The notes below the pieces were generated by a model. That model had not been told where the DNA came from. It worked only from the letters and a program-made list of their open reading frames with translations, and did not search any database. A program made the position numbers and the translations under genes. A stretch of 64,000 bases of DNA from a virus: the IMG/VR virus record IMGVR_UViG_3300022868_000017. One strand, given 5' to 3'. Positions within the stretch are counted from its first letter, which is position 1. Every line of letters starts with the position of its first letter. Below are positions 4,714-37,420 of the stretch, in pieces.

Positions 4714-5212
4714 TTTTTTCTCTCTTTTTTACCTTATATTCTGAACATTTCTTACATGAACAAATTTTAAAATCATAATTTTCTTCTTTATGTGTCATCC
4801 AATCATCTGGTTCATTATAATCATGTGTTTCATTATTATCTTCACAATTACAAGTGGTAATATATTCTACAGATGTGTCTCTTCTCCAATTAAACTTTTT
4901 CCCACAATCTGGACATTCAAAAATATCTTCTTGTTCACTATGTTCCCACATATCACCACCTTCCCACTTACAATATGGACAGATTATACTATCACTATGT
5001 CTTTCTTCAAAGTTAAAATATTTCTCTAAAGCAACAGAGACATCATTTAGATTTTTTATAGTAATTCCTTCACAATTCTCCATAAGATAATCTCTTAAAC
5101 CTTTAATCTTTTGTTCTAACTGTTTTTTAAAAATAACTGGATGTGAGACTATGCTTTTTCCAAAGACTGTTTTTTCCGTTATCTTTAATTCAAATACATT
5201 TAATCTACTCAT
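4700..5212 (-). CDS. Zn-ribbon/Cys-rich protein
   Basis: CPYCKW...CPDCGKKF plus CNCEDN and CSCKKC pairs. RBS GAGGT 8 nt upstream of ATG, lying within the 33-bp repeat at 5209-5242. Confidence 0.5.
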   Translation of the reverse strand: MSRLNVFELKITEKTVFGKSIVSHPVIFKKQLEQKIKGLRDYLMENCEGITIKNLNDVSVALEKYFNFEERHSDSIICPYCKWEGGDMWEHSEQEDIFECPDCGKKFNWRRDTSVEYITTCNCEDNNETHDYNEPDDWMTHKEENYDFKICSCKKCSEYKVKKREKNDEN

Positions 5213-5506: not shown

Positions 5507-6100
5507 TCATAATCTTTTAGGCAGGATACCCACTAATTTATTAGTGGGAGGAATGCCGTTACCTCCAATTAATTTAGTTTGATTGGTATTTATATTAAGA
5601 ATATTGAATTTAATATCTCCTTTATAATTTTTACATAAATGAAAACAACCAAATTGAAAACCACTTTGAGGAAAGCTTTTAGGGGTATCAAATATAATTA
5701 TTTCTTTAATTCCAAATCCTTTTTCAAATACATCTCTTAATCTTGCTTTCAACCATAAATGATTAATACTTGTTAAGAATACTATATTGTTAGATATATC
5801 CATTGATTTTTGCATAAACTTACGCATTTTACTATATGGAGGATTTGTAATTATCCAATCAACTTCCCCATTATATTCAAAAAAGTCTTTTCCTTCTAAT
5901 ATTTCACACCACTCAAGGGTATGTCCTTTTTGTATATACCCTTTCAAAAATTTATACCAAATACCTTTACCCCTACAAGGTTCAAGTATTCTGCCTTTAG
6001 GTTTAAAGTGTTCTGTAATTGCTTTTATATAATTCAATGGAGTTTGAACACAATCTTCTCTCTTTGAATTAGAAGGAATTAATTTAGCCATTATGACCAC
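5507..6100 (-). CDS. N6-adenine DNA methyltransferase (NPPY motif)
   Basis: DWIITNPPY (motif IV). ILEPCRGKG (motif I-like SAM site) preceded by a TP motif-X-like region. The motif order suggests a gamma-type amino-MTase. Confidence 0.6.
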   Translation of the reverse strand: MVIMAKLIPSNSKREDCVQTPLNYIKAITEHFKPKGRILEPCRGKGIWYKFLKGYIQKGHTLEWCEILEGKDFFEYNGEVDWIITNPPYSKMRKFMQKSMDISNNIVFLTSINHLWLKARLRDVFEKGFGIKEIIIFDTPKSFPQSGFQFGCFHLCKNYKGDIKFNILNINTNQTKLIGGNGIPPTNKLVGILPKRL

Positions 6101-6180
6101 TCTCCTAAACTCTTTTGTTTTATTTTTACCATTTTTTCTTTGTTTATTTGGAAACTACCTACTTTAGTGGGTAGAGGGTT

Positions 6181-6212
6181 TCATTTTTTACCTCATTCGT
6201 TTACTTTAGATT
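6181..6212. repeat. 33-bp direct repeat copy 2
   Basis: See 5209-5242. Located about 85 nt upstream of the MTase start codon. Confidence 0.7.
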
Positions 6213-6221
6213 AAGCGAATA

Positions 6222-6578
6222 TCACTCAGACAACCAAACGACATTTCCTGCCTGTTTTTGTTGAAGTTCTTTACCTAACCTTTCAATTTCTTCTCTTGCT
6301 TCAAGAACTTCTTTCCTTAAATCTTCTACTACTTCTCTAGGTTCCGGAAGACTATAATCTTTAGCATAGTCTATGCCCCTACTTTGTGTGTATCTCTGAT
6401 TTACAATATCTCTTTCCCTTAATCTTTGATTAATATCAATGACATTTCCTGTTACCAATTCAGGTCCAGATGTATATTCTCTATATTTTGCAACTACAGA
6501 GTTTACTACATCAATTGTAGAGTCCACATAATCCATCACTTTATTTTTTAATCTGTCAAATAATCCCATTTTAGTCAT
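6222..6578 (-). CDS. coiled-coil protein
   Basis: C-terminal heptad-like EVLEAREEIERLGKELQQK. Noticeably less AT-biased codon usage than its neighbours. Confidence 0.45.
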   Translation of the reverse strand: MTKMGLFDRLKNKVMDYVDSTIDVVNSVVAKYREYTSGPELVTGNVIDINQRLRERDIVNQRYTQSRGIDYAKDYSLPEPREVVEDLRKEVLEAREEIERLGKELQQKQAGNVVWLSE

Positions 6579-8694: not shown

Positions 8695-8928
8695 CTATTC
8701 AAATCCTTTTTTTGTTTGAGTACCAAGATAATCTTCTGGAACCCATAAACATAAATCTTTTTTATTAGGTCCACCATAGCCTACTCTAAATTTAAATGAA
8801 CATTCTCTACTATCATAACACATTTGATACCCATCTTCACTTTTCATATGCCTTGGAAGTTGTTCTCCATCATCTGAAATATCTTCATTAACTATATATT
8901 CAATTCCACATGTTGAATCAGGCTTCAT
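8695..8928 (-). CDS. small Cys-containing protein
   Basis: ORF track. 4-nt overlap with the upstream gene. Confidence 0.3.
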   Translation of the reverse strand: MKPDSTCGIEYIVNEDISDDGEQLPRHMKSEDGYQMCYDSRECSFKFRVGYGGPNKKDLCLWVPEDYLGTQTKKGFE

Positions 8929-10154
8929 GCTATAGCCATCTCCTCTTTTTTTATTATTTTTTTCAAATGGTCTTTATTAAGTACTAGCTTATCAGCAATT
9001 CTTAAACCTTTAGTCTTAACTAATCTAACTAAAAAAGCACTTTCTTCTTCATTAATATGTCTATTATAAGAACCTAATGCTTCTGAAATAGTTTCATTTT
9101 TCAACTCAACAGTTACCAAACTATCTTCAGGTGTTTTCTTCAATCTTAAAAACATAATATATGTTTGACCTTTGATTATTTTTTTAACATATGAAGATAC
9201 ACAATGATTTAATTCCGTTCCTTCTCTAACAACATCTTTAGAACAATTAGGAATTACTATACAAAATTTACCTTCTTCAAATACCATATCTTTTCTCATC
9301 TTATGTTCAAAAGCAATTTCATCATATTCTGTTTTGTAAGCATTATAATTAGCAGTTAAAATATCATGCATACTTCTCAAATATTTAGGATATTTTTTAA
9401 CTTTTCTACCTATTGTAGCTCCCATTTCATAATAATCTTTTAATAAATTCAAAGCATCACTAAATTCAATATTTTCAAATGGTTTTAAATATCTTACTAT
9501 GTATTCTATTAAACTAATCATATCAAAATTATGTTCATTTATTAAAGATAAGAAATTTGTACTCATACTACTACTATAACTTCTGTAACCAACTAATTCT
9601 CTAAAAGTTTGTTTGATTTCTTCTTCATCTAACTTACTCAATGGTAGTTTATGAATGAATTTGATAATCAAAGATGTATGGGAGAGATAATTTTTTTCAA
9701 TATTTTTAGTTACTTTAATTTCATATCTCTTAAAAAATTTAATTACATTCTTATCATATATTGTTATAGGTTCATGAATACCTCTAACATGATAAGTACC
9801 CCAACTATCTATATCAGCCCAAACATCTATTTCCAAACCTGCATCAATATAACCTTCATATTTCACACATTCTGGTATTCTAGTGATAAAAGAAGAAATA
9901 CTTTTACAATTTGGATTTAATTTTCTAACTAATAAAAATAACTTCCTAAATTTTTCTGTATTAAATATCAAATCATCTATCTCATAATTCATAAAGAAAC
10001 AATATTGATGTTCTACTTTTCTCCAAGATTCAGTTCCTTTTTTTTTCTCCATACACATATCTTTGAGATTAAATCTAACTTGTTCATCAATACCTTCTTT
10101 TCTGAGATAGATAAAATATCTATCCATACTCAGTTTCATCTTAGGAAGTGTCAT
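8925..10154 (-). CDS. hypothetical protein, possibly PcfJ-like
   Basis: C-terminal segment LNHCVSSYVKKIIKGQTYIMFLR recalls the HCVxSY...G...I.SLR signature I remember for PcfJ-family proteins of plasmids and phages. Assignment from memory only. Confidence 0.3.
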   Translation of the reverse strand: MTLPKMKLSMDRYFIYLRKEGIDEQVRFNLKDMCMEKKKGTESWRKVEHQYCFFMNYEIDDLIFNTEKFRKLFLLVRKLNPNCKSISSFITRIPECVKYEGYIDAGLEIDVWADIDSWGTYHVRGIHEPITIYDKNVIKFFKRYEIKVTKNIEKNYLSHTSLIIKFIHKLPLSKLDEEEIKQTFRELVGYRSYSSSMSTNFLSLINEHNFDMISLIEYIVRYLKPFENIEFSDALNLLKDYYEMGATIGRKVKKYPKYLRSMHDILTANYNAYKTEYDEIAFEHKMRKDMVFEEGKFCIVIPNCSKDVVREGTELNHCVSSYVKKIIKGQTYIMFLRLKKTPEDSLVTVELKNETISEALGSYNRHINEEESAFLVRLVKTKGLRIADKLVLNKDHLKKIIKKEEMAIA

Positions 10155-10311: not shown

Positions 10312-11139
10312 CTATTTTTTAAGTGGTAATTCACCAATTATTAATTGAGGTGATATACCCTTTTCAGTCATGATAATCTTAGCATTATCTTTTAAACTGT
10401 TTTCAGTTACTTCCAACTTTCTCAATAATTGAGATTTTTCCTTAAAAGATTTTTCAATCAAATCAAAAGCTTTAGCTTGTCCTTCTGCTTTAAGAATAGT
10501 TGCTTGTTTATGACCTTCAGCAAGCTTGATATTAGCCATTCTCTGTCCATCAGCCTCGGTTTCCGTTGCTTTAGCAAAATCTTTTGCAGCTATTTTCTTT
10601 CTTTCAGCTACAACAACATTATTCATTGCCTCTTGAACATCTTTAGGAGCTTCAATCTTTTGAATTTCTACTCTTAATACTTTCACTCCATAACTATCTG
10701 TTTCTTTATCTAAAATAGATTCAACTTCTGTATTAATTTTAGTTCTTTCCTCATTGGCTTCAGTAAAGGACATTTGACCAATTACTGCTCTAAGTGTGGT
10801 TCTTGCCAAAGAAGTTAATTGAATTTTATGATTATCAACATTGTATTCTGACTTTTTAGCATCATCAATTTGATAATAAACAACAGCATCAACAATAGCA
10901 TTAAGATTATCTTTTGTAATAACTGTTTGTGGCTCAACATCTACCATTTGTTCAGTAATATTAACTTTTCTCATTGTTTGAACAATTGGAAATAACCATG
11001 TAAAACCTGCTTCTGCTGTTTTAGACCATTTACCTAATGTTTCAACCAAACCTCTATGAGTAGGTCTGATAATTCTTATTCCACTCATTAGAAATATAAA
11101 AATTACTGTACATATTCCAATTATAATTATATCTAACAT
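10312..11139 (-). CDS. SPFH/band-7 (stomatin/prohibitin/HflK-like) membrane protein
   Basis: N-terminal TM helix. SPFH core with YQIDDAKKSEYNV...TLRAVIGQMSFTEANEER...VKVLRVEIQKIEAPKDVQEAM. C-terminal Ala/Glu/Lys coiled coil. Confidence 0.8.
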   Translation of the reverse strand: MLDIIIIGICTVIFIFLMSGIRIIRPTHRGLVETLGKWSKTAEAGFTWLFPIVQTMRKVNITEQMVDVEPQTVITKDNLNAIVDAVVYYQIDDAKKSEYNVDNHKIQLTSLARTTLRAVIGQMSFTEANEERTKINTEVESILDKETDSYGVKVLRVEIQKIEAPKDVQEAMNNVVVAERKKIAAKDFAKATETEADGQRMANIKLAEGHKQATILKAEGQAKAFDLIEKSFKEKSQLLRKLEVTENSLKDNAKIIMTEKGISPQLIIGELPLKK

Positions 11140-11423: not shown

Positions 11424-11514
11424 TTTTATTTTCCTCTTGTTTGATATTATGTGTCATAATGTCACATAATATGATGACATACTTAAACTTTTATATACTT
11501 GAGTATATACTTCA

Positions 11515-13857
11515 TCATATTAGTGTTGTTTGACCTTGAATTCTTAATGTAGTTTTTAACCGTAATTGTTCTAATTGAGGTAATTCATCTAAAGCTTTAA
11601 ATATACCTTCTACCACTAGAAAAATACTTCTTTCTAATAAAGATAGTTGGTCTATTTTAATTTCCACACCTTCTAAATCTTCATTTTCATGGAAACATAT
11701 AACATCTGTAAAACCATTCTTTACAAACAATTTCAACATCTTATCCCCAACTGGAAAGTGTAATCCTAGATTCTTAGTAGCCCATGCTATCCCTCTCAAC
11801 TTTGGTGAGGTTGATGCATAATCTTTAACAGGTTTTGTTAATTTATCAGGGATACTAATATATTCATAATCAAATTCATTATTCAAACACCTATCTATAT
11901 TTTCTTGAATATATTTAACCATCTTATCATAATTATCTTCTTTTATCAAAATATTAAAACATTCAGTTTGTAATTTTCTAGCAAATTCACTATAATCAGT
12001 TCTAACAGCTGCCACACCTACTAAATCAACATTATCTTGAATCTTTCCTTTTTTCCAAATTATATGACCTGCATATCTCTTCTTAGCCATAACTATTTGT
12101 CTTCTATAAACCTTTTCAAAATCAATATTTTGTATTTGTGGTACACCATATTTATCAGCATATTCATTATAAGCTTTGTGAATTTCTTCTCTTAATCTAT
12201 AAGCTTCTTCTTTGATTTTTTCTAAATCATCTTCAATACCATTTAATTGAACAAATACTGAATCTGTATCTCCTCCAATTAATTCATGACCTGCTTTTTC
12301 AATAATAGATTGATTAATGACAAATAATTCTCTACCAACAAATGTAATTGTATCAGCTATTCTATCATCATACATTCTAAACCCATCATAAGCAGCTGCC
12401 CCATAAGCTGTACAAGCTACACATTTGATTGAATCTAAAAGGGAGGTAGCTCTTTCATATTCTATAGTACCAACAGTAGCTTCATCTCTCATTTTATCAA
12501 ATCTTTTTCTCATATGAGCCAATTGTTCCACTACAATAGGTAATATCCCTTTCTTATCCATTTTAATCTTGATACCATTAATTTCAACAGTACCTTCATC
12601 ACAGATAGTTTCTCTACTAAGATTAAATTGTCTAATTATGGTTGGATATAGAGATGATAAATCTAAAGTAATTATATTCTTGAAAAGACCTGTTCTAGCT
12701 TTAACTGTGGCACCTCCTACCTTTTCTCTATGACCAGTTGGTATAGGTTTAGTTGGCATAACAATATTATGTTCTGTTGTATATCTTAACATTAAGAAAT
12801 CAATTACTCTACTATAAGCAGATACATCTTCATAATTCATCCAACTAATTTCTCTTAATCCATTGATAAAATTCATAATACCTACTGTTTGTTCTAATTC
12901 AACAGTTATATCAACATCAGTTACGTTATAATGAATAAGTTTATTCAAATCTGTATCCCAAGCTTGTTGAGGATTACAACTTTCTTTAGCTTCTCTACCT
13001 AATTCATGTTTACAAATATTTTTTAATGAATAAGATGGTAAATCTCCATGATGTAATTGTCTATACCAAGTTAGAATATCAATTAATTCAACACCAAATA
13101 TGTTAATTCTCAAATCTTTGTAATTATCACCTTTATGTAATACTCTATTCATAGGTGACATTTTTTTATAATTAACACCTAATCTTTTCATTCTACTAAT
13201 TAAATAATTAACATCAAAACCTATGACATTAAAACCAGACCAAATGTCAGCATCTATTTTTCTAACTAACTTTAGAAAGTTGGTGAGTAACTCCTTCTCA
13301 TCACTAAATGTTCTTATTTCTACACCAGGAATATCTTTGATTGGTATATTGGCCACATTGGGATGATAAACCAGACAATACCGTTTATCTAGGTAATTAT
13401 CATGTAATGCTATAGATGTAATATTTTCACTAGCTTTAAATGGGTCTAATGGATTATACATAGTGGTTTCAATATCTAAAGTTAATATTCTAAAATCACC
13501 ATTGAACTTATATCCCTTACCAATTATGTTTTTTTGTTGGTCTAACAAAAACCTATAATAAAATTTGATATCAGCTTCATATGTTTTTTTAAATTGATTT
13601 CTTAAAGAATATGTATGTCTTGGAATACCATAATGAATTTTTCTTACTTCATCACCAAATATAGACATATAATGTTGTTTACCTATACTAACACCTGGTA
13701 TATAATCACTATGATATTCACTATCTGCTTCATTAATATAAAAGTAGGGTTTGAACCATGGTATTCTTTTAACAACTTTGGTTCTACCTTCTCTACCAAA
13801 CATATAAATAACAGGTACATCTAATTCTTCTTTATAATCAATATTATATACATCCAT
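11515..13857 (-). CDS. polB: family B DNA polymerase
   Basis: ExoI LTLDIETT. ExoII NVIGFDVNYL. ExoIII YNVTDVDI. PolA DLSSLYPTI. PolB KCVACTAYGAAAY (KxxxNSxYG-like). PolC GGDTDSVFV. Confidence 0.9.
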   Translation of the reverse strand: MDVYNIDYKEELDVPVIYMFGREGRTKVVKRIPWFKPYFYINEADSEYHSDYIPGVSIGKQHYMSIFGDEVRKIHYGIPRHTYSLRNQFKKTYEADIKFYYRFLLDQQKNIIGKGYKFNGDFRILTLDIETTMYNPLDPFKASENITSIALHDNYLDKRYCLVYHPNVANIPIKDIPGVEIRTFSDEKELLTNFLKLVRKIDADIWSGFNVIGFDVNYLISRMKRLGVNYKKMSPMNRVLHKGDNYKDLRINIFGVELIDILTWYRQLHHGDLPSYSLKNICKHELGREAKESCNPQQAWDTDLNKLIHYNVTDVDITVELEQTVGIMNFINGLREISWMNYEDVSAYSRVIDFLMLRYTTEHNIVMPTKPIPTGHREKVGGATVKARTGLFKNIITLDLSSLYPTIIRQFNLSRETICDEGTVEINGIKIKMDKKGILPIVVEQLAHMRKRFDKMRDEATVGTIEYERATSLLDSIKCVACTAYGAAAYDGFRMYDDRIADTITFVGRELFVINQSIIEKAGHELIGGDTDSVFVQLNGIEDDLEKIKEEAYRLREEIHKAYNEYADKYGVPQIQNIDFEKVYRRQIVMAKKRYAGHIIWKKGKIQDNVDLVGVAAVRTDYSEFARKLQTECFNILIKEDNYDKMVKYIQENIDRCLNNEFDYEYISIPDKLTKPVKDYASTSPKLRGIAWATKNLGLHFPVGDKMLKLFVKNGFTDVICFHENEDLEGVEIKIDQLSLLERSIFLVVEGIFKALDELPQLEQLRLKTTLRIQGQTTLI

Positions 13858-13873
13858 ACATCCTACCTCACTA

Positions 13874-14623
13874 TTAATTAATTATTTGTTTGAAATAATT
13901 TACATTTCTTATAAATAAGTTTTTGTTTTCAATATCATCATCAAAGTACATTTTGATATTAGGTTTATACACATCCATTTCTTTCTCTAAGTCCATGTTT
14001 GCCAAACCTATTCTGGAAAATAATTTTCCATCTGTTGACCTAATTAGTGAAAACTTTGATAAAGTTATTAATTCACCAGTACCATTACTCCCCAATAAGT
14101 GAATAGGTTTATTACTTTTCCTAATCCAACTATTAATAATCAAAGTTCTATTAAAACTCTGATTTTCATATTTCTTATCACAAATTTGGAATGGTATTAA
14201 ATCAAAACTATTTCCAATTATTTTTACTCTAGTATCTTTATTAAACACATCAAAACATTCTTGAATTTCTTCCCAAGTTTCACCTTGTGGTACAGCTTGG
14301 ATTATAATATTATGTTCTTTTAACTTTTCATAAAACATATTCATGAATTCATTAAAGTATCTAAGTGTTCTTTCTTTATCTTTCATAACATCTGGAACAA
14401 CAATTTCATTAACACCCATATTAATAGCTAATTCAACATGGTCTTCCCAATTTATCTCACTTCTTTCATGAACATTATTGTCTAAAATACTATATCTTTC
14501 ACTTTTTGTATAGAAATCTTTATATTGTTTGTTCATTTTTGCTTCTCTAGTTAAGATATAATCATAATCACTTATGTTCATCAAATCTAGATTTTTAAAC
14601 GGTACTATTAATGCTAATTTCAT
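13874..14623 (-). CDS. possible DpdA-like DNA-guanine transglycosylase (TGT superfamily)
   Basis: Weak TGT-like segments AVPQGETWEE (cf. VQGG) and IHLLGSNGTGE (cf. YLMGVGxP). Sits between polB and the que genes, where DpdA sits in known viral 7-deazaguanine clusters. Confidence 0.4.
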   Translation of the reverse strand: MKLALIVPFKNLDLMNISDYDYILTREAKMNKQYKDFYTKSERYSILDNNVHERSEINWEDHVELAINMGVNEIVVPDVMKDKERTLRYFNEFMNMFYEKLKEHNIIIQAVPQGETWEEIQECFDVFNKDTRVKIIGNSFDLIPFQICDKKYENQSFNRTLIINSWIRKSNKPIHLLGSNGTGELITLSKFSLIRSTDGKLFSRIGLANMDLEKEMDVYKPNIKMYFDDDIENKNLFIRNVNYFKQIIN

Positions 14624-15333
14624 TTTATATCACTCTCCACAATTTTTTTATAACCCATATTAATCCTATATTCATTTACCAAACAATCAAATTGATATAC
14701 ATTACTACTTTTTTTATATATTTCTCTTTGAATCTTTGTAGGTATTTTTAATTCTTTTAATCTTTTACAAAAATGTTCACATATTTCTTCCATCATATTA
14801 TAATATTTTAATCTCAAATCACCATCATCATTATTAATAAAGATATCACCTTTAGTAAGTGTAACAATTTTTGAAGACTTTGGGTGAGATATTCTATTAG
14901 AAAAACTACCAATTATTTGAGCAATTTTAGGATGAGCTGGTCTTATCATTTCTCTTTTTCTGTTATTCCCATAACTATGAGATTCACATGTCTTTTTTAA
15001 AAATACATTTACCAAACTATATTTTTCTGATAAAGATTCATTTAAAATATCTTTATTATCAATTGGATATCTGAAATCTGAATCTGATTTTTCTAAATTA
15101 CATTTCTTACATAGAACATAAAAGTTATCAATACTACAACTCCCACCATTAATGAAAGGTTTATAATGGTCAATTTCTAATCTATCTTTTTTATGATATA
15201 CAATCATTTCTTCATCTTTATGTGTTTTACCACAACATTGACAAGTATATTTATCTCTTTCAAGTATTTGTAATCTAAGAGAGATAGATATTTTTTTTCT
15301 TTTACGTTTTGTAATTATCTTATTATCAACCAT
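14620..15333 (-). CDS. HNH endonuclease domain protein
   Basis: CQCCGK...YHKKDRLEIDHYKPFINGGSCSIDNFYVLCKKCN (HNH with CxxC pairs). Confidence 0.6.
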   Translation of the reverse strand: MVDNKIITKRKRKKISISLRLQILERDKYTCQCCGKTHKDEEMIVYHKKDRLEIDHYKPFINGGSCSIDNFYVLCKKCNLEKSDSDFRYPIDNKDILNESLSEKYSLVNVFLKKTCESHSYGNNRKREMIRPAHPKIAQIIGSFSNRISHPKSSKIVTLTKGDIFINNDDGDLRLKYYNMMEEICEHFCKRLKELKIPTKIQREIYKKSSNVYQFDCLVNEYRINMGYKKIVESDIK

Positions 15334-15334
15334 T

Positions 15335-15751
15335 CTACCACCACTCAGATAACAATATACCCAATTTTGTATCTTGTCCTATTTCTTCTTCTCTTAAAAA
15401 TATAGTTCCATTACAATCAATTCTAAGAATAATAGATTCATTAGACCTTATACTAAAACAATTATCAAAACTTTCAGACATATTTCCTGCTAGTTGAAGA
15501 TAAGATAAATCATTATCTTGAATTTGAAAAATATTACTTGTTATTATAGGTGAGTTATTAATGTAATATAACTCAGAATCATTAAATATTAATGAAGTTG
15601 AATTATCATCTACAAATAAATCTTCATCTATGAACCATCTATCTATATCTTCAATTAATTGTTCATTTTCGGAAAGTTTATCATTACAACCTATTAATAA
15701 TAAAGAAAAAATTAAAACCAATCCTATCAACATCTTTTTCATTTTATCCAC
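15335..15751 (-). CDS. putative lipoprotein
   Basis: MDKMKKMLIGLVLIFSLLLIGCND, signal peptide plus LIGC lipobox. Confidence 0.45.
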   Translation of the reverse strand: MDKMKKMLIGLVLIFSLLLIGCNDKLSENEQLIEDIDRWFIDEDLFVDDNSTSLIFNDSELYYINNSPIITSNIFQIQDNDLSYLQLAGNMSESFDNCFSIRSNESIILRIDCNGTIFLREEEIGQDTKLGILLSEWW

Positions 15752-16234
15752 CTATAAATGTCTCGTATGCATAGGATAATTATTAGATATTGAAGATGGT
15801 ACATGAAAACCTTCTTTACAATATTCACTTACAGGACAGATACTAATACCTCCTCTAGGTGTAAAATCTCCTACTACTCTAATCCATTTTGGATTCATTC
15901 TTTCTTTCAAATCTTTCATAATTTGTACTGTACAATCCTCATGAAAATCACCATGATTTCTGAAACTAAACAAATACAATTTTAAAGATTTACTTTCTAC
16001 CATTTGCACATCTGGAATGTATTGGATATGAATAGTAGCTAAATCAGGTTGACCTGTTTTTGGGCATAATGATGTAAATTCTGGACATTTAAAACTTACC
16101 AAATAATCCACATCAGGATGTTTATTCTCAAATGTTTCCAATGTTTCCACATGAGGATGGTCTAACTTATACTCTGTTTTTTCACTCCCCAATGCTTTTA
16201 CACCATCTAACTGTACTTCTGTTCTTTCTTCCAT
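15752..16234 (-). CDS. queF: NADPH-dependent 7-cyano-7-deazaguanine reductase QueF (preQ0 to preQ1)
   Basis: Catalytic Cys region [17 protein letters not shown] and QueF motif [23 protein letters not shown]. Confidence 0.85.
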
Positions 16235-16235
16235 C

Positions 16236-16595
16236 TTATCTACCTCCTATAGATAATGATTCATATAATCTAAACATTCTTTTCTTATACCCTACTTCTA
16301 TAGATTTTTCTTTTATAGAACTAGTAAGACCATCAATTTCAGTTATTACATCATTATATTCTTGTTTTAACTTTAATCTTCTATGTGTTTCAGTATCCCT
16401 TTTTTGTTGATTTGAAAATAAAAGTTTACCTACATCACCTGTTTCTCCACTAACAGATACAAATACTTCATCAAACATTTTATGTTTAATTTTAATGTTA
16501 TCTTCTCTTGTTTCAGAATTTTTAAATATATCTTTCTCCAAGTCTCTAATATCTTCTGGTAATTTTTTAAATTCTTCAATATTTTTTTCTTCCAT
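16236..16595 (-). CDS. hypothetical protein
   Basis: ORF track, charged protein, 119 aa. Confidence 0.4.
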
Positions 16596-16604
16596 TTTTT
16601 ACCT

Positions 16605-17309
16605 CTAAAGTATTTCCATCAATACTGATTTTGCTTCTTCCCATTCTTCATTAGTTAAAGATGGGTCTTTGACTTCATTCAAAAAGAATGCTTCAGTTCT
16701 TTCTACACAAGTTCCACATTTCAAACAAGGTCTATCTCCACCTTCATAACAACTCCAAGTTCTATCATAAAGTACTTTTAAATCTTTACCTTCTTTAACA
16801 ATATCTTCTTTTTTCATATCATTAAATGGTGATTCAATTTTCACATTGTTATAAGTACCTAAACTAGCTGCCAAACTAATAGCTAATGTAAATTCTCTTC
16901 TACAATCTGGATAAATGTCATGGTCTCCACTATGACTACCTAATAATACTCTATCAGCTTTTATATTTTCAGCATAACCAACAGCTATACTTAACATAAT
17001 TCCATTTCTAAATGGTACTACAGTTGATTTCATATTTTCAGCAGCATAATGACCTTCAGGAATCTTTTCTCCATCTTTTAATAAACTTGATGTGAAACCC
17101 CATTCATTAAGATTTAGATTAATGATTTGATGTTTAACTCCTAATGCTAAACAATGTTCTTTAGCAAAATGAATTTCTTTTTCATTATGTTTACTACCAT
17201 AATTAAAAGTTAATGCTTCAACATCTTGATAATGTTTTTTAGCCCAATACAATAATGTAGTTGAATCTAAGCCACCACTAAATACAACTACAACCTTTTC
17301 TTTTTTCAT
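16605..17309 (-). CDS. queC: 7-cyano-7-deazaguanine synthase QueC
   Basis: PP-loop VVFSGGLDSTT. C-terminal Zn site WSCYEGGDRPCLKCGTCVER. Confidence 0.9.
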   Translation of the reverse strand: MKKEKVVVVFSGGLDSTTLLYWAKKHYQDVEALTFNYGSKHNEKEIHFAKEHCLALGVKHQIINLNLNEWGFTSSLLKDGEKIPEGHYAAENMKSTVVPFRNGIMLSIAVGYAENIKADRVLLGSHSGDHDIYPDCRREFTLAISLAASLGTYNNVKIESPFNDMKKEDIVKEGKDLKVLYDRTWSCYEGGDRPCLKCGTCVERTEAFFLNEVKDPSLTNEEWEEAKSVLMEIL

Positions 17310-17318
17310 TTATTCACC

Positions 17319-17567
17319 TCAATAAGTATCATTTTTTGTATCTTTGAAATTTAACTTAGCCAACATAGCATCATATGGTACATCTCCTACTCTCTTAGTT
17401 AACATCATGTATGCTACATTAATTACATCACACAATTCTTCATTAATGTTTGAATCATCTCTAATAGCCTCTTCTAATTCACCCATTTCTTCTCTCATAG
17501 ATGCACAAAGGTTATCCATAGTACATTGTTGACCAATGCTTTCAACTTTTTTATACCAATCTTTCAT
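17319..17567 (-). CDS. small MazG/HisE-like nucleotide pyrophosphohydrolase (tentative)
   Basis: EEMGELEEAIRDD ... EELCDV acidic metal-binding helices resembling the MazG EExxE...D motif. 82 aa. Confidence 0.3.
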   Translation of the reverse strand: MKDWYKKVESIGQQCTMDNLCASMREEMGELEEAIRDDSNINEELCDVINVAYMMLTKRVGDVPYDAMLAKLNFKDTKNDTY

Positions 17568-17613
17568 TTTTTATCCTCCACAGAACTTAATTCTGCTTTT
17601 TCAATACATCTAT

Positions 17614-17793
17614 TTATTTCCTCTCTTTCATATAATGTGGACATCTGTAACAATCTGGTCCAGGTTTTTCTGGTGTAGATTCTATACACTCTTTATCAGG
17701 AAAAAACCCTATACAATCAGGGAATTTAACTTTTCTTCTTTCTCTTTCAGTTTTTGTCAACTTTAGATTTGGACATACTTGTAATCCTCCCAT
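17614..17793 (-). CDS. small Cys-rich protein (59 aa)
   Basis: Hand translation MGGLQVCPNLKLTKTERERRKVKFPDCIGFFPDKECIESTPEKPGPDCYRCPHYMKERK. Not in the ORF track. Confidence 0.25.
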   Translation of the reverse strand: MGGLQVCPNLKLTKTERERRKVKFPDCIGFFPDKECIESTPEKPGPDCYRCPHYMKERK

Positions 17794-17818
17794 TATCTGC
17801 CACCTCTAATTGTTAATT

Positions 17819-18406
17819 TCATTTTAGATTTAATAAGCCTAAAAACTCATCCTTTATTCCATCTTGATTAGTTTGGAATATCCCTTTAACACAACAGCTT
17901 TTCATGTTACCTTTCTTTTTAGCTCCTCTCATGGTTTTACACAAATGTTCTCCTTCCATGATTAATATCATTCCCAAAGGTTCATTTCCTTCTTTACTTA
18001 ATTCAGTCCATAAATGAGTAACTACATCTTGAACCAATCTTTCTTGAATTTGAAGTCTGGCTGAAAAGTAATCTACTACTCTAGCTACTTTACTTAATCC
18101 TAAAATCTTACCTTTTGGATTGGGTATATAACCAAAATAATATTTTCCAAAAAATGGAATTACATGATGTTCACATAATGATTGAAATGGACCTTCATCT
18201 GTTACTAATTGGTCATATACTAAACCATCTGCACCATTAGTAAATGTAGTAACTTTCGGTAATTGAGTTTTATCATATCCTCTGAATAACTCTTTATACA
18301 TTTTAGCTACTCTCTTTGGTGTATCCAAAAGACCTTCTCTTTCTGGATTATCTCCCACTTCTGCCAAAATCACTTTCCACATTAATTTAATTTTTTCTTC
18401 ATCCAT
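17819..18406 (-). CDS. folE: GTP cyclohydrolase I FolE
   Basis: LLDTPKRVAKMY, CEHHVIPFFGKYYFGYIP, LGLSKVARVVDYFSARLQIQERL. Confidence 0.85.
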   Translation of the reverse strand: MDEEKIKLMWKVILAEVGDNPEREGLLDTPKRVAKMYKELFRGYDKTQLPKVTTFTNGADGLVYDQLVTDEGPFQSLCEHHVIPFFGKYYFGYIPNPKGKILGLSKVARVVDYFSARLQIQERLVQDVVTHLWTELSKEGNEPLGMILIMEGEHLCKTMRGAKKKGNMKSCCVKGIFQTNQDGIKDEFLGLLNLK

Positions 18407-18415
18407 TTTATTACC

Positions 18416-18688
18416 TCATTTTAAAAAAATATCCCATCTTTTATATTTTTTAACTCCTTCAATATCATTTTCAATCCAACCTACTCTCATATCCATCATT
18501 TCACTCATTATGAATAAACCAAACCAAGTAATAGTTATCTTATATTCAGGAATAAAAGAACCTGTTGCTATGATTTTAACCAATATGAAGAATATAAAAG
18601 TTATAGCAAAAGATATTATCACATTTGTTAATACTCTAATCATTTTACCTTGAGTTTTATTCATTTCATACACCTCTCTTATCATCAA
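18416..18688 (-). CDS. small membrane protein
   Basis: Two hydrophobic helices VLTNVIISFAITFIFFILVKII and ITWFGLFIM. Confidence 0.4.
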   Translation of the reverse strand: MMIREVYEMNKTQGKMIRVLTNVIISFAITFIFFILVKIIATGSFIPEYKITITWFGLFIMSEMMDMRVGWIENDIEGVKKYKRWDIFLK

Positions 18689-19349
18689 AACCTAAAATAT
18701 GGTCCCTATTGGTAAAACCATATCCATATTCTAAACACCAATCCATAACCTTTGGAATGTTCTTTAAAACTATTTCTCTTTTATCACCTTGTGGCATCAA
18801 GATTATATCTCTATTTTTAAGAATTTCCTTGAGTTCTTCAATCTCTTCTATATCTTTAAGAGTATCAGCTACAAACTTAAAAGTAGTTTTTTGTTTTGGA
18901 AATGATTTCAAAACCTTTATATTTATTCTTTTATCTTCATAAGCTTCAGGTTGATTACTGCATGTCAACTTTGGACTCACATTGAATAAATCTACTTGAG
19001 ATTGTAATCTTCTTTTTGGTTTAATAGTTCCATTAGTTTCTATTTGAACATATCTATTCAAAGGTAACTTTTTGAGTATTCTGATTATCTGGTCTTGGTA
19101 CATCAAAGGTTCTCCACCAGTAAATACCACATGTTTATGGTCGTAAGATAAAATCCTATGCAACACCTCATTAAGTGATAACTGGTTAGGTTTACCACTA
19201 ATTACTGCATAGGGAGTATCACAACTAGACCCATTAAATCTACATCTCAAGTTACATCCCCAAACTCTAACAAATACAGCTGGATATCTCATCTGACCTT
19301 CAGCCTGTACTGCTGGATATATCTCACAAATGGGTATTGTATCACTCAT
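18666..19349 (-). CDS. queE: 7-carboxy-7-deazaguanine synthase QueE (radical SAM)
   Basis: N-terminus EIYPAVQAEGQMRYPAVFVRVWGCNLRCRFNGSSCDT parallels B. subtilis QueE [35 protein letters not shown]. Plus FTGGEPLMY. Cys spacing is C-x3-C-x6-C rather than C-x3-C-x2-C. Confidence 0.8.
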   Translation of the reverse strand: MSDTIPICEIYPAVQAEGQMRYPAVFVRVWGCNLRCRFNGSSCDTPYAVISGKPNQLSLNEVLHRILSYDHKHVVFTGGEPLMYQDQIIRILKKLPLNRYVQIETNGTIKPKRRLQSQVDLFNVSPKLTCSNQPEAYEDKRINIKVLKSFPKQKTTFKFVADTLKDIEEIEELKEILKNRDIILMPQGDKREIVLKNIPKVMDWCLEYGYGFTNRDHILGFDDKRGV

Positions 19350-19612
19350 TTTATCAACGTCCCTAATGTTTTAACTCTATAAGCTAATAAAAAGGCATGA
19401 TTAGCTACATCATATAGTTCTTCAACTAATTCTTCAACTGCTGTATCTTTGTTAGTTGTAATAGTAAAATCACCATATTTTTCAAAACCCTTTTCCAACC
19501 TATCTTTCATCTGAGTTAAAAAATGTTCAAAATACTCAAATTGATCTTTCTTACTTTCTTCACTACTTTTTGCAAATCTTCCTTCTTTTATTTTGTCTAA
19601 TTCGTTTGTCAT
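19346..19612 (-). CDS. hypothetical protein
   Basis: ORF track, 4-nt overlap with queE. Confidence 0.4.
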   Translation of the reverse strand: MTNELDKIKEGRFAKSSEESKKDQFEYFEHFLTQMKDRLEKGFEKYGDFTITTNKDTAVEELVEELYDVANHAFLLAYRVKTLGTLIK

Positions 19613-19805
19613 CTATAATCACCTCAAAATCTGTACCAATAGTACATGTCAATACCACTATTAATATAATGGCAGATGCTATGTTGTTGAATGCCAATGC
19701 AAGTCCAAAAGTAAGACCTAACAAAATCATATTAGACCATTTAAACTTAACATTTTTCTTTTCTTGAAAAGATATTGATTTCATTTTACCAATCTCCAAC
19801 TTCAC
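19563..19805 (-). CDS. small membrane protein
   Basis: Hydrophobic stretch ILLGLTFGLALAFNNIASAIILIVVL. Overlaps 19346..19612 out of frame, so either its coordinates or the real start may differ. Confidence 0.3.
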   Translation of the reverse strand: MKLEIGKMKSISFQEKKNVKFKWSNMILLGLTFGLALAFNNIASAIILIVVLTCTIGTDFEVIIDDKRIRQNKRRKICKK

Positions 19806-20316
19806 AAAATGTTTCTTTTTTTACTGCTGTTTCGTAAATTCTAACCTTAACATCAATATCTTTGTCAACATTTGTAAGACCTTTTAAATATCCATATGCC
19901 CATTGAGATAAGTTCTCAGCTGTTGGATTAGCATGAATCACATCATTAATAAATGTGTGGTCTAATAGATTATGAAGTTTTTTAACAATACCGAAATCTA
20001 CTAAGATACCAACATCATCTACATCTTCATGACTACCTTTAAACCAAACCATGATTAACCAACTATGACCATGTACTTGGTTACATTTACCTTTATATCC
20101 ACATAATTGATGAGCACTATCAATCACAGTTTCTGTGAATAATGTTACATTTTTGACCTTTTCAGTTTGAGATACTTCTTCATCTTCCATTCTTCCTTTA
20201 ACATAGTTATTAACACAGTTTAGACTACAAAAATCTCTTCTTTTTCTGTTATGATAAAGACACCATTCTGAATAAGAACCTAATGTCTTATTACATTCAT
20301 TACATTTAATTACCAT
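19786..20316 (-). CDS. queD: 6-carboxy-5,6,7,8-tetrahydropterin synthase QueD with N-terminal Zn-ribbon extension
   Basis: CNQVHGHSW (CxxxHGH) and LLDHTFINDV. The N-terminal 40 aa CNECNK...C...CSLNC is an extra Cys4-like module not present in canonical 120-aa QueD. Confidence 0.75.
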   Translation of the reverse strand: MVIKCNECNKTLGSYSEWCLYHNRKRRDFCSLNCVNNYVKGRMEDEEVSQTEKVKNVTLFTETVIDSAHQLCGYKGKCNQVHGHSWLIMVWFKGSHEDVDDVGILVDFGIVKKLHNLLDHTFINDVIHANPTAENLSQWAYGYLKGLTNVDKDIDVKVRIYETAVKKETFCEVGDW

Positions 20317-20858: not shown

Positions 20859-20987
20859 TTATTCTGGTACTTGTAAAGATTCATCAATATCAACGAATGC
20901 TTCACATTTTTCACAAAGATAAGTCATGATTGATTCATCAATTATATGTAATGAACCACCACAATGTGGACATTTACCTTCTGTCAT
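20859..20987 (-). CDS. Zn-ribbon mini-protein (42 aa)
   Basis: Hand translation MTEGKCPHCGGSLHIIDESIMTYLCEKCEAFVDIDESLQVPE. CPHC...CEKC. Not in the track. Confidence 0.25.
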   Translation of the reverse strand: MTEGKCPHCGGSLHIIDESIMTYLCEKCEAFVDIDESLQVPE

Positions 20988-21106
20988 TTTTCTTATTCTC
21001 CTTGTTGAATCTACAATCCTTATCATGCTTTATAGTAAAACTTGGTACCCCTTTACTTTTTTTCCCATGGGAATAATTTGTTCTACTAACAGCACCACAT
21101 TTGCAT

Positions 21107-21892: not shown

Positions 21893-22953
21893 TGTTCTTC
21901 CTCTTCAACTTTAGTAGATGGCACAACCTCCTTAACCCGCCAAACTTTATCTACGAAAACTCCGTACATATTCATTTGAACTTCTTCTTCATTTGATTGT
22001 GGGTTTAATCTAACTGAAGGCCAACCTACAAATAAACAATCTTGGGAACCTTCAACAAAATTAATAGGATAGTTTTTAGATAAGAAACATACAATAGAAT
22101 CTTTAATCTCAATACTATCATCATCAATACTTAAAATTGTATTGTATTTACTTTCCAGATTAATATTGAAAATGGTACCTTTAACTACACAAAATCTATT
22201 ACCACCATTTCTATTAGATTCAAAGTAATCTTTTAACTGACTTAAATTACCCACTAAATGATTAGGGATAACTTTCTTAAACAGTTCAACTACATCTACT
22301 TCTCTACTACCTTTAGCATTGAAAAGAGTTACTGTAGATTGATTAAGTTGGAAAATACCTTCTTCATCTTTTCTAATAATAGCTCTAAAAGGCATTTCAA
22401 CAAACATCGGTAATTTAATATCAAGTTTATCTCCTCTCAGAGTTAAGAACGATAATTTGTATTCAGTTTCATCTTCTCTTCTTGATATTAGAACTAAAGG
22501 TCTTTGTCTTTCATATTCATAGTTGATTCTTCTTTGACCAACTTCTTTTGTGACACCTGTGTCATCTTCATACTTCCACTTGGCTTTAGTATTATCTGAA
22601 TGCCATAATGGATTACCATCAACATCAGCTATACCATCTTTAATCATGGTTTTCTTAATAACTTCATCAGCTTCAGACCATAAAGTTTTAATCTTATCAT
22701 ACTGATTTTTAGCACCGAAATCTGTTACACCTTGGTCTCCAATGATAGTACCTACTAATTTAGCCGCTGGAGATGCTAATTGTTTTTTGTAAAGAGTTCT
22801 GATTCTTGTTAGAGTAAACTTATCTAACTGTTCTTCTGGAATACCTTTCTTACTAAAACTTTCTCTTTCTTTTTTGTACTCTTCTTCTAAAGTCTCAAGT
22901 TCTACAATGGCTTTACTTTTAATTTTTTCAAATAATTCTTCTTTTGTTGTCAT
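21886..22953 (-). CDS. hypothetical protein (355 aa)
   Basis: Translationally coupled to the ATPase gene. No confident motif. Confidence 0.5.
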   Translation of the reverse strand: MTTKEELFEKIKSKAIVELETLEEEYKKERESFSKKGIPEEQLDKFTLTRIRTLYKKQLASPAAKLVGTIIGDQGVTDFGAKNQYDKIKTLWSEADEVIKKTMIKDGIADVDGNPLWHSDNTKAKWKYEDDTGVTKEVGQRRINYEYERQRPLVLISRREDETEYKLSFLTLRGDKLDIKLPMFVEMPFRAIIRKDEEGIFQLNQSTVTLFNAKGSREVDVVELFKKVIPNHLVGNLSQLKDYFESNRNGGNRFCVVKGTIFNINLESKYNTILSIDDDSIEIKDSIVCFLSKNYPINFVEGSQDCLFVGWPSVRLNPQSNEEEVQMNMYGVFVDKVWRVKEVVPSTKVEEEEQW

Positions 22954-23187
22954 TTTTGTTCAGCCTCCTTTTTCTCAACAAACTCCTTTACTCGTTCTAT
23001 TACAGAATTCTGGAGATTAATAGACCTAGGTACTAGGTTTTTATATCTATCCCACAACTCATCTGGCATGTCTTCAATCAATACTTTTGTCATTTTTTTG
23101 ATTCCTCCTACTTATATAAGTTAATTATAACTTATCATTTATAAATGTTTATTAAGATAACTTTATATTCTCAAGAATATAAGGTTT

Positions 23188-25650: not shown

Positions 25651-25710
25651 TATTAGCTATACTTAGTATAAATAAGTTCAAGTATATAAACCTTTATCTT
25701 TTCTAGTATA
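25651..25710 (-). promoter_or_regulatory. conserved ~60-bp promoter-like element, copy A (archaeal TATA tttatata on minus strand)
   Basis: About 85% identical to 26141-26200. The minus-strand reading contains aaaggtttatatactt and tatatactagaaaagata upstream of the 25627 start. Related ttttctagtatata also at 1745-1760. Confidence 0.5.
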
Positions 25711-25714
25711 TAAG

Positions 25715-25951
25715 TCATTTTTCCAACTCATATCTTTTAATGGGGTTAGGAATATTGCCTCTTTGTAAAACTTTATAACATTTTGGGCAAATTAGATAAC
25801 TAACTTTTTTATCAAAATCTGCTAATCCTATTACTTTGTCACAATCCTCACAATCTTTACAAACTGGTTGTGTTTCTGTTTTTCCATACATTGTAATTAA
25901 GCAATGTATATTTGTTTCCGTTATTTGTTTTTCAAATTTTTGTTTTTCCAT
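25715..25951 (-). CDS. Zn-ribbon protein
   Basis: CKDCEDC ... CPKCYKV. Confidence 0.4.
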   Translation of the reverse strand: MEKQKFEKQITETNIHCLITMYGKTETQPVCKDCEDCDKVIGLADFDKKVSYLICPKCYKVLQRGNIPNPIKRYELEK

Positions 25952-26140: not shown

Positions 26141-26200
26141 TTCTTAACTATACTTAGCATAAATAAGTACTAGTATATAAATCTTTATCTTTTCTAGTAC
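26141..26200 (-). promoter_or_regulatory. conserved promoter-like element, copy B
   Basis: See copy A. ctatacttagcataaataagtactagtatataaatctttatcttttctagtacata. Confidence 0.5.
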
Positions 26201-26220
26201 ATATTTGACCAGAAAAGTAT

Positions 26221-31656: not shown

Positions 31657-32050
31657 CTATTAATAAATAGATTAAATAAGTTATAAACTTTTATTAAACT
31701 ATCTTTATTATTAGGCCCCAAAAAAGTTTTTCCGGTAATAACCTTCTGTGATAAAGACATTCTGAGATACCTATACCAGAATGGCAAAGAAACCCATATT
31801 TTTGTTCTTTATCCCATCTATCTATACAATAGGAATGGTTGGGTGGTTTTATTTCAAGAAGTTTTCTCACTACTATAGTTAGTGCACGAGAGGGCCCAGC
31901 TTTCACAGACAAAGCTGTAAAGTAAATACCAATCGTATGTGAGAATGTGACTTACTAAAAAAAAAATTAGTATAGTAACCCCTGTTTTAACCAAAAAATA
32001 AACATATCTTAATAAAGATTTAAAAAGAAATCTAATTAATTATTAATAGT

Positions 32051-37356: not shown

Positions 37357-37420
37357 GATTTTTTCTAACTGAATTATATCATAAGTTTTCTTAATAAATA
37401 TTTATAAATGATAACTATTA

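Follow-up and report, generated by a model that had tools for sequence, protein, structure and literature searches.

A putative DpdA3-type 7-deazaguanine DNA-hypermodification module adjoins the DNA polymerase gene of an uncultivated virus-like element

The window, a 64,000-nucleotide (nt) stretch of DNA from IMG/VR record IMGVR_UViG_3300022868_000017, carries on its minus strand a complete set of genes for the biosynthesis of 7-aminomethyl-7-deazaguanine (preQ1), followed by a gene for a small protein resembling tRNA-guanine transglycosylase (TGT) and by the gene for a family-B DNA polymerase (PolB). We found that the TGT-like protein belongs to DpdA3, a subfamily tied to the replacement of 100% of G (PMC10516641). 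The locus is probably a module of the DpdA3 type by which an uncultivated virus or virus-like element hypermodifies its DNA with a 7-deazaguanine. The modification strategy itself is already known; what is new is a deeply divergent member of the DpdA3 class in a new viral lineage. An initial annotation, made from the letters of the window, had proposed that G in this DNA is hypermodified to a deazaguanine, and both the DpdA3 identity and the completeness of the pathway speak for this prediction.

A DpdA3-type protein and a preQ1 pathway beside PolB

The open reading frame (ORF) that adjoins PolB encodes only 249 amino acids (aa). The initial annotation had singled it out as a TGT-superfamily-like candidate DpdA, which was borne out by homology to a founding DpdA3 protein, by the predicted fold, and by conserved aspartates. 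Hidden Markov model (HMM) searches, suggested at the same time as a check, recognized the pathway enzymes but not this protein: at E ≤ 0.01 it matched no Pfam or NCBIfam model, PF01702 (TGT) and the TGT/DpdA models included. There was also no match in PDB, either with the sequence or with a 15-sequence profile, and the identification comes entirely from PHROG, tblastn, and fold comparison. The ORF matched phrog_20335, a family of unknown function, with an E value of 4e-25. Among 50,697 phage records searched by tblastn, five from Cellulophaga phages (phiST and its relatives phi13:1 and phi19:2) aligned over 100% of the protein with 29% identity (7e-22), and four from Flavobacterium "immuto" phages aligned over 93% with 24% identity (6e-8); the immuto gene is annotated as "DNA guanine transglycosylase" (YP_010114477). 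The phiST protein, CGPG_00065, is the one on which Cui, Hutinet and co-workers (2023) founded the DpdA3 subfamily (PMC10516641), and in the reciprocal tblastn search its only match in the window was 13880-14623 (2.7e-26). An exhaustive HMM search showed that the family is large, as 2609 cluster representatives passed E ≤ 1e-3 and 761 passed E ≤ 1e-10.

The fold of this ORF had been named beforehand as the test on which its assignment could fail, and the TGT fold was obtained. The AlphaFold2 model, built with 15 metagenomic homologues as input, reached a predicted local distance difference test (pLDDT) score of 93.2 and a predicted template modeling (pTM) score of 0.90. All of the top 50 Foldseek matches in PDB were bacterial TGT or archaeosine TGT (probability 1.00, TMq 0.56-0.65, 12-15% identity). 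In BFVD, the phiST protein ranked first (TM 0.88/0.85, root mean square deviation 2.8 Å, E 2e-18), while phage "queuine tRNA-ribosyltransferases" of the DpdA1/2 type came far lower, at TM 0.5-0.6.

An alignment of 152 members, including the phiST and immuto proteins, revealed that D48, H175, G178, and D198 are 100% conserved, D78 is 97% conserved with Glu in the remaining members, and E53 and Q113 reach 95% and 91%, respectively. In a weak hhalign comparison with Escherichia coli TGT (probability 8%, E 0.004), S-T-D198 fell on the MFD264C nucleophile motif, Q113-G114 on the GIIQG motif with its conserved Gln, and H175-L-L-G178 on LMGVG. Two further motifs resemble each other, namely, ILD48NN and LTD89SGG, and PD78 and FD143E. 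The defining features of TGT and bacterial DpdA (bDpdA) are three invariant aspartates and a zinc site, CxCx2Cx22H, by which the Ins8 subdomain is pinned (PMC10164549). We did not find this zinc site in the 249-aa protein, which has only two cysteines (C123 and C148) and no CxCxxC, and whose chain ends about 50 residues past the nucleophile Asp D198. Because the DpdA3 proteins of phiST and immuto likewise do not have it, its absence excludes TGT and bDpdA proper but not DpdA3. The protein is thus a member of DpdA3, with a stripped-down barrel.

All five pathway genes named in the initial annotation, folE and queD as well as queE, queC, and queF, were recovered on the minus strand within 15752-20316 by family models, and each of the catalytic motifs listed for them is present at defined residues (Table 1). 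QueF is a bona fide unimodular enzyme with an SLCP motif carrying the Cys at residues 55-58 and with ESKSLKLY at residues 80-87, which fits the published NADPH motif of phage QueFs, E(S/L)K(S/A)hK(L/Y)(Y/F/W) (PMC10516641). QueC carries SGGLDS at residues 11-16 and the zinc-site cysteines C187-x8-C196-x2-C199-x2-C202. QueE and QueD scored below the NCBIfam equivalog cutoffs but above those of Pfam, and their best matches were to the right families. For QueE, the five best NCBIfam matches were all QueE models (1.6e-20 and weaker), and its identity to the QueE proteins of phiST and immuto was 28-29% over the full length. The cysteine spacing of its cluster, described at first as unusual, is real (C32-x3-C36-x6-C43, that is, Cx3Cx6C) but falls inside the known variability of QueE: four relatives have Cx3Cx2C, contig L011 has Cx3Cx11C, and phiST and immuto have Cx3Cx7C. 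QueD does carry the extra N-terminal Cys4 module ascribed to it, a C2-C2 arrangement of about 55 aa (C5-x2-C8-x21-C30-x3-C34) with spacing like that of FCS/TRASH modules, which matched zf-FCS and zf-FLZ only below threshold. In the relatives, QueD is 133-154 aa long and without this module, which is a lineage-specific addition.

The stop of the TGT-like ORF and the start of QueD are the exact bounds of the interval 13874-20316. Within the co-directional block that extends from 23093 down to 11515, the sole intergenic gap of at least 50 nt lies at 21027-21106, and the cluster and PolB together form one gap-free block. An identical DpdA3 protein is encoded by at least 23 contigs, up to 74.6 kb long, that come from several samples in JGI, ENA, and SRA; metagenomes containing the contig are JGI 3300023435, 3300031227, and 3300023253 and SRR7528474. 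In addition, tblastn detected homologues with 41-51% identity on seven other metagenomic contigs (L009, L011, L012, L015, L016, L017, and L018). Within this clade, DpdA3 is 249-264 aa long. The gene order in the relatives is QueE-QueC-orf88-FolE-QueF-DpdA3-PolB, where orf88 stands for a small conserved ORF discussed below. In all seven, QueF is located upstream of DpdA3, with none to three small ORFs in between, and its identity to the window protein is 58-61% in L009, L011, and L018. PolB is the next gene after DpdA3 in L009, L011, L016, and L018; a single ORF separates the two in L015 and L017, and in L012 a family-B polymerase is encoded 3.6 kb downstream. Contig L018 presents the module stripped to QueE-QueC-94 aa-FolE-QueF-DpdA3-PolB, where stops and starts overlap. 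Because seven functionally linked genes occupy 6.4 kb of the window with no gap of at least 50 nt, and because their order recurs in seven independent metagenomic relatives, the clustering is far beyond chance. A near-identity DNA search with 11.5-20.6 kb against the 50,697 phage records returned no match, and scans of genome contigs and IMG/VR based on the DpdA3 alignment yielded pattern matches, none of which was confirmed as a relative.

Two side observations concern these relatives. The PolB of L012 (5186-8653, 1155 aa) contains an intein (Intein_splicing in Pfam), around which the window PolB aligns in two pieces. Furthermore, a mini phosphoribosyltransferase is encoded inside the DpdA3-type Que clusters of L015 (7731-8057, 108 aa) and immuto (record L008, 9786-10181, 131 aa); the two proteins share 30% identity (E 2e-13) and a VDDIxDxGxT motif even though the viruses are otherwise unrelated, and there is none in the window. 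Such an enzyme could make a preQ1 nucleotide or recycle the released guanine.

Table 1. Genes of the putative modification module in the window, and orf88 homologues on related contigs. Domain and family hits are given with E values or bit scores.
Feature	Length (aa)	Position	Strand	Evidence
PolB, family-B DNA polymerase		11515..13857	-	PF00136 8e-40, PF03104 1e-20; 16-nt gap downstream of DpdA3
DpdA3-subfamily TGT-like transglycosylase (predicted)	249	13874..14623	-	minimal TIM barrel, D48/D78/D198, no Zn subdomain
HNH endonuclease	237	14620..15333	-	PF01844 6e-8; many PHROG HNH families
Small lipobox protein	138	15335..15751	-	LIGC at 19-22; no family match; lineage-specific
Unimodular QueF, NADPH-dependent preQ0 reductase (preQ0 to preQ1)	160	15752..16234	-	TIGR03139 1e-50, 170 bits (cutoff 87); PF14489 4.5e-33
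Uncharacterized ORF	119	16236..16595	-	no family match; no tblastn match in relatives
QueC, 7-cyano-7-deazaguanine (preQ0) synthase		16605..17309	-	PF06508 7.8e-66; TIGR00364 211 bits (cutoff 150)
MazG/HisE-like all-alpha NTP pyrophosphohydrolase mini-protein	82	17319..17567	-	PF01503 (PRA-PH) 25.1 bits (cutoff 21.3); PF03819 (MazG) 22.1 (cutoff 22)
Cys-rich mini-ORF	59	17614..17793		5 Cys; from sequence
FolE, GTP cyclohydrolase I (GTP to 7,8-dihydroneopterin triphosphate, H2NTP)		17819..18406	-	PF01227 2.5e-48; NF006826 172 bits (cutoff 162); CEHH 78-81
QueE-like radical S-adenosylmethionine 7-carboxy-7-deazaguanine (CDG) synthase		18666..19349	-	PF04055 8.9e-11
orf88, helical	88	19346..19612	-	conserved in relatives; no family match
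QueD, 6-carboxytetrahydropterin (CPH4) synthase		19786..20316	-	PF01242 (PTPS) 3e-21, residues 61-166; TIGR03367 1.5e-20, below cutoff; CNQVHGH 78-84
Zn-ribbon-like mini-ORF		20859..21026		CPHC..CEKC
orf88 homologue, contig L009		7023-7292
orf88 homologue, contig L011		3879-4214
orf88 homologue, contig L015		10001-10273
orf88 homologue, contig L016		~4745-4912
orf88 homologue, contig L017		~2749-2988
orf88 homologue, contig L018		~1373-1612

Predicted product and route of guanine replacement

We predict 2'-deoxy-preQ1 (dPreQ1) as the end product, because QueF is present and the window holds no homologue of DpdN, DpdM, or DpdL. This agrees with the earlier expectation of preQ1 rather than preQ0. 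Searched by tblastn, immuto DpdN and phiST DpdL reached best E values of 0.13 and 2.4 in the window, and with the immuto phosphoribosyltransferase and thymidylate-kinase-like protein added, the best values ranged from 0.07 to 2.4. A Pfam search of essentially all window ORFs of at least 75 aa detected no Formyl_trans_N, no DUF3109 (the model through which DpdM was sought), no methyltransferase, and no second PTPS, and the gene tables of the relatives list no formyl- or methyltransferase. Phage QueFs complement an E. coli queF deletion (PMC10516641). The DpdA3 phages analyzed so far (CP220, phiST, and immuto) are completely substituted (PMC10516641); because every one of them shows 100%, the level of replacement is likely to be high and possibly complete in this element as well, which by analogy is plausible.

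Flavobacterium phage immuto_2-6A provides the most instructive comparison. It encodes DpdA3 and FolE as well as QueD, QueE, QueC, and QueF, together with DpdN, and its DNA contains 100% fdPreQ1 (PMC10516641), the formylated form, because the PurN-like formyltransferase DpdN is also encoded. The gene set of the window is that of immuto_2-6A minus DpdN; hence the contrast between fdPreQ1 there and the dPreQ1 predicted here. Both share the same six enzyme families, DpdA3 among them (24% identity, 6e-8), a similar order (QueD-QueE-FolE...DpdA3...QueF...DNA polymerase), and an insertion between the second and third cluster cysteines of QueE. In contrast to immuto_2-6A, the window has neither the phosphoribosyltransferase nor the thymidylate-kinase-like gene, its 160-aa QueF is unimodular, as opposed to the bimodular 306-aa protein, and it combines PolB with an otherwise unrecognizable genome of about 64-75 kb, whereas immuto_2-6A is a 160-kb myovirus with PolA.

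The closest characterized DpdA3 is that of Cellulophaga phage phiST, whose 2'-deoxy-7-deazaguanine (dDG) system consists of CGPG_00065, FolE, QueD, QueE, DpdL, and a MazG-like protein (PMC10516641). There, too, the transglycosylase gene is flanked by the Que genes on one side and the polymerase genes on the other, with a MazG-like gene in the cluster. However, phiST encodes the QueD paralogue DpdL but neither QueC nor QueF, leading to 7-deazaguanine, while the window has QueC and QueF but no DpdL. Bacterial DpdA, TGT, and archaeosine TGT have in common with the window protein the (beta/alpha)8 barrel and three aspartates (97-100% conserved) arranged as in double displacement, but they are 350-580 aa long and possess a Zn site, Ins8, and an N-terminal lid that the 249-aa protein does not have; we found no DpdB ATPase partner for it. 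The archaeal tailed virus HVTV-1 likewise has a QueF-containing cluster and dPreQ1 in its DNA (PMC10516641, PMC8651126), yet it uses the DpdA4/DUF6610 transglycosylase instead of DpdA3 and is modified at about 30% of G; the GC content of haloviruses is >55% as compared to 28% in the window.

From the observed gene identities, fold, conserved residues, and synteny, we infer preQ1 as the substrate, DNA as the target, and the extent of the replacement. The published DpdA model, in which GTP is turned into free preQ1 and this base then takes the place of guanine in DNA, is the best supported reading and probably the correct one. FolE, QueD, QueE, and QueC would convert GTP to the free base preQ0, which the unimodular QueF would reduce to preQ1. 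The 249-aa DpdA3 barrel would then exchange guanine in the DNA of the element for preQ1 by the double-displacement chemistry of TGT, with D198 as the nucleophile, D48 as the general acid/base, and D78 in base binding. DNA modified in this way would resist host restriction enzymes and other nucleases.

Several points weigh against this model. The sequence-profile similarity to TGT is weak, as seen in the hhalign score given above and in a family profile that found no PDB match. D48 and D78 were assigned from conservation and motif position rather than from a confident alignment, and the residue mapping is in part inferred. The Zn site and the large DNA/RNA-binding insertion Ins8, both conserved in TGT and bDpdA (PMC10164549), are missing from the protein. 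Moreover, DpdA3 activity has never been reconstituted, either in vitro or in E. coli (PMC10516641), and for that reason "DNA transglycosylase" is an inferred function for the whole subfamily. Finally, about ten small unannotated ORFs in or near the cluster could tailor preQ1 further.

As the main alternative, the modified base might enter the DNA before or during replication. In such a pre- or co-replicative route, a deoxy-preQ1 nucleotide would be incorporated by PolB, the MazG-like ORF and/or orf88 would hydrolyze dGTP and so keep G out, and the substrate of DpdA3 would be a nucleotide or nucleoside and not duplex DNA. The 100% replacement of G in DpdA3 phages (PMC10516641) would be hard to achieve by base exchange on double-stranded DNA of packaged length, and the DpdA3 barrel has no nucleic acid-binding Ins8/Zn subdomain (PMC10164549). 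The gene adjoins PolB in the clade, is a few genes away from PolA in immuto, and lies beside polymerase genes in phiST (PMC10516641); MazG-like hydrolases are encoded with the clusters of the window, phiST, and immuto; the clusters of immuto and L015 include the mini phosphoribosyltransferase, and immuto has the thymidylate-kinase-like gene in addition. The nucleoside ADG (7-amido-7-deazaguanine) has been reported in CP220-infected cells (cited in PMC10516641). A parallel exists in the Z-genome (2-aminoadenine) phages with PurZ, MazZ, DatZ, and DpoZ, which, by analogy only, share whole-genome purine replacement, a MazG-type hydrolase, and a dedicated polymerase linkage. Their system, however, works wholly at the level of deoxynucleoside triphosphates (dNTPs) and without a transglycosylase, whereas no enzyme for the synthesis of a deoxy-preQ1 nucleotide is encoded in the window: with no phosphoribosyltransferase, kinase, or nucleotide reductase, there is no visible path from the preQ1 base to a dNTP. 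Furthermore, the three TGT-type aspartates are 97-100% conserved, as expected for glycosidic exchange, the 82-aa MazG-like ORF is not conserved in the relatives, the assignment of orf88 as a nucleoside triphosphate pyrophosphohydrolase is without statistical support, and the phosphoribosyltransferase could equally recycle released guanine to GTP. On balance, we regard this route as unlikely.

It is somewhat more doubtful still that the final base is a further tailored, known or new N-substituted preQ1. There is a precedent, as the two best-studied QueF-containing phage systems modify preQ1 further, to mdPreQ1 (the methylated form) by DpdM and to fdPreQ1 by DpdN (PMC10516641), and several ORFs of the cluster are without a detectable family. 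The candidates for such a step would be orf88, the 119-aa ORF, the 59-aa Cys-rich ORF, and the zinc module of QueD. Among these, orf88 is present in all seven versions of the cluster, and its invariant acidic and His residues suggest metal-dependent chemistry; it is, however, merely an 88-aa two-helix hairpin, and ORFs that are absent from the relatives cannot provide the core chemistry. Neither the window nor the gene tables of the relatives contain a formyltransferase, DUF3109/DpdM, methyltransferase, amidotransferase, or the LxxxHRH signature of QueD paralogues.

A supply of preQ1 or queuosine for host or viral tRNA, with the cluster as an auxiliary metabolic module, is very improbable: although bacteria canonically make the precursor of tRNA queuosine by the FolE-to-QueF pathway and a TGT-like fold is common to the tRNA enzymes, the protein in question is a DpdA3, whose characterized members come from phages with fully modified DNA (PMC10516641), it has neither the tRNA-binding insertions nor the Zn domain of TGT, its gene is embedded in the replication module and abuts PolB, and no tRNA gene or preQ1 riboswitch was found in the window.

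Interleaved genes and orf88

The initial annotation had noted several genes interleaved with the pathway, but had not remarked on the conservation of orf88. Homologues of orf88 with 35-50% identity were found in all six relatives that cover the region, always between QueC and FolE. Because a homologue occurs in every such cluster, orf88 is a conserved seventh component of the cluster in this clade. In an alignment of ten members, D6, K9, Q24, R38, G42, K45-Y46-G47, E61, E64-E65, D68, H72, and L76 are invariant, giving the signatures G-x2-KYG and EExxEExxD..H. The AlphaFold2 model (pLDDT 78) is a hairpin of two long helices, with EExxEExxD on the second. None of the ten members matched Pfam, and Foldseek found no match in PDB. 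The best PDB profile match, to the phosphoribosyl-ATP pyrophosphatase HisE (1yvw), was aligned over the EExxEExxD..H helix and was not significant (E 0.5). Comparisons by hhalign with the MazG-like ORF of the window and with the phiST and immuto hydrolases were also not significant, and phiST and immuto contain no protein of the orf88 type. Hypothetically, orf88 might be a minimal MazG/HisE-like NTP pyrophosphohydrolase.

The MazG-like mini-protein was recognized by two Pfam models at or above their cutoffs, as its earlier description implied, and has the motifs EMGE and ELCD. It has no homologue in the relatives and is specific to the window. Together with orf88, it may serve as a helper that clears dGTP or handles nucleotides.

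The HNH endonuclease, likewise confirmed by its Pfam match, is absent at this position from L009, L011, L012, L015, L017, and L018. Contig L016 encodes a 125-aa HNH protein (5992-6369) at the same QueF/DpdA3 junction, with no detectable homology to that of the window. The window HNH is probably a free-standing insertion of the homing type and no component of the pathway, and the two nonhomologous HNH genes are consistent with independent insertions of homing endonucleases at a conserved site. Of the two lipoproteins mentioned initially, one was found, the lipobox ORF, while a second was not identified; the former has no homologue in the relatives. We rejected either gene as a part of the pathway, since the lipoprotein occurs in no relative and the sole other junction HNH is nonhomologous. 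Judged by sequence comparison, the HNH, the lipoprotein, and the zinc module of QueD are additions specific to this lineage. The Zn-ribbon mini-ORFs are plausible, given CPHC..CEKC in one and five cysteines in the other (Table 1).

The element and its host

The window is very AT-rich, with a GC content of 26-32%. Its genes are arranged in two blocks, one on the minus strand (about 27.8 to 0.2 kb) and one on the plus strand (32 kb onward). The replication gene set, which comprises PolB, an AAA_24 ATPase, an ERCC4 nuclease, a PcfJ-like protein, and a serine recombinase, has a viral appearance. In contrast, searches of 32051-63317 (+) with Pfam, PHROGs, PDB sequences, and tblastn against phage records detected no capsid, portal, tail, or lysis protein; a 592-aa ORF (33115-34893, +) has an N-terminal P-loop with generic P-loop matches and a partial terminase-like PHROG match (6.6e-6). 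The morphotype and the viral nature of the element are unproven.

Giant plus-strand ORFs of 1562, 1990, and 2548 aa fill about one-third of the window. The 1990-aa ORF (43981-49953, +) contains a HINT/intein-like domain at residues ~692-820 (PT-HINT 1.7e-12, Vint 1.5e-7), which suggests autoprocessing or an intein, and is otherwise unrecognizable. The 2548-aa ORF (52008-59654, +) has many diverged internal repeats, with units of ~39-174 nt in two to five copies, and is likely a fiber- or adhesin-like surface protein. At the junction of the divergent blocks lies a serine recombinase (30778-31656, -; Resolvase 1.2e-21 plus a Recombinase domain), which suggests that the element can integrate; L015 has a tyrosine integrase instead. 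Just downstream of PolB, an SPFH/Band-7 membrane-scaffold protein (10312-11139, -; 4e-40) and the PcfJ-like protein (8925-10154, -; 1.6e-24) are cargo unusual in a viral replication module.

The clues to the host are mixed, with some affinities to archaeal viruses. The best isolate matches of PolB were haloarchaeal tailed viruses (HRTV-27, 25.7%, 1e-60), followed by T4-like cyanophages (4e-38), and the ERCC4 nuclease (2046-2543, -) matched only Halorubrum tailed virus 27 among the 50,697 phage records (29%, 7e-7). Both matches hint at an archaeal-virus ancestry despite the 28% GC. A PolB scan of 185k genomes placed a contig binned to Planctomycetia on top (31%), followed by Woesearchaeota, Acidobacteriota, Bacteroidetes, and Aenigmatarchaeota at 25-26%; none of these genome contigs carries Que or DpdA3 genes. 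The Woesearchaeota and Aenigmatarchaeota entries in this list again lean toward an archaeal host. A bacterial host is favored by this top contig from a Planctomycetia metagenome-assembled genome, by the origin of the nearest DpdA3 isolates, which are Bacteroidota phages, and by the classical lipobox. The window contains no tRNA genes and no Rfam matches. Sigma-70 promoter and terminator consensus sites were not enriched (106 against 121 expected and 3 against 4.2, respectively; promoters within 11-29 kb). Shine-Dalgarno sites are ubiquitous, with GAGG/GGAGG 6-12 nt upstream of most genes, and not diagnostic of the host.

Two intergenic elements were also observed. A 29-nt motif, reading AAGTATATACT..ATATAAAAGTTTA on the coding strand, occurs in four minus-strand intergenic regions (1733-1761, 11484-11512, 25687-25715, and 26178-26206), about 50-60 nt upstream of start codons, with one copy just downstream of PolB. 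Two of the copies fit an exact degenerate pattern for which 0 matches are expected by chance, and the motif is probably a promoter or regulatory site. A second element, AATAAA(C/T)ATTTATAAATG, is common to 23136-23153 (-), 37393-37410 (+), and ~31995-32026, upstream of the gene that opens the replication/modification block (22950-23093), of 37421, and of 32051, respectively. Its AAA-NN-TTTATAAA layout is reminiscent of archaeal promoters with a B recognition element (BRE) and TATA box.

As a more far-reaching and rather unlikely scenario, an unsampled virus lineage, possibly of DPANN or other low-GC archaea, might convert every G to unsubstituted dPreQ1 by the seven-gene module, with DpdA3, orf88, and PolB acting at or before replication through exclusion of dGTP combined with incorporation or immediate exchange, and thus not through base swapping after replication alone.

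Hypermodification with 7-deazaguanine is one of the few ways in which a virus can recode a whole base, and DpdA3 is the least understood of the transglycosylase subfamilies. The locus and its seven relatives define a compact DpdA3 clade with a clean set of conserved residues for mutagenesis. They also represent a natural DpdA3 and QueF system without DpdN or DpdM, a configuration from which a genome with dPreQ1 throughout is expected but has yet to be observed. Both orf88 and the strict linkage of DpdA3 to PolB offer handles on how complete replacement is achieved. If the host proves to be archaeal, DpdA3 would extend beyond bacteriophages.

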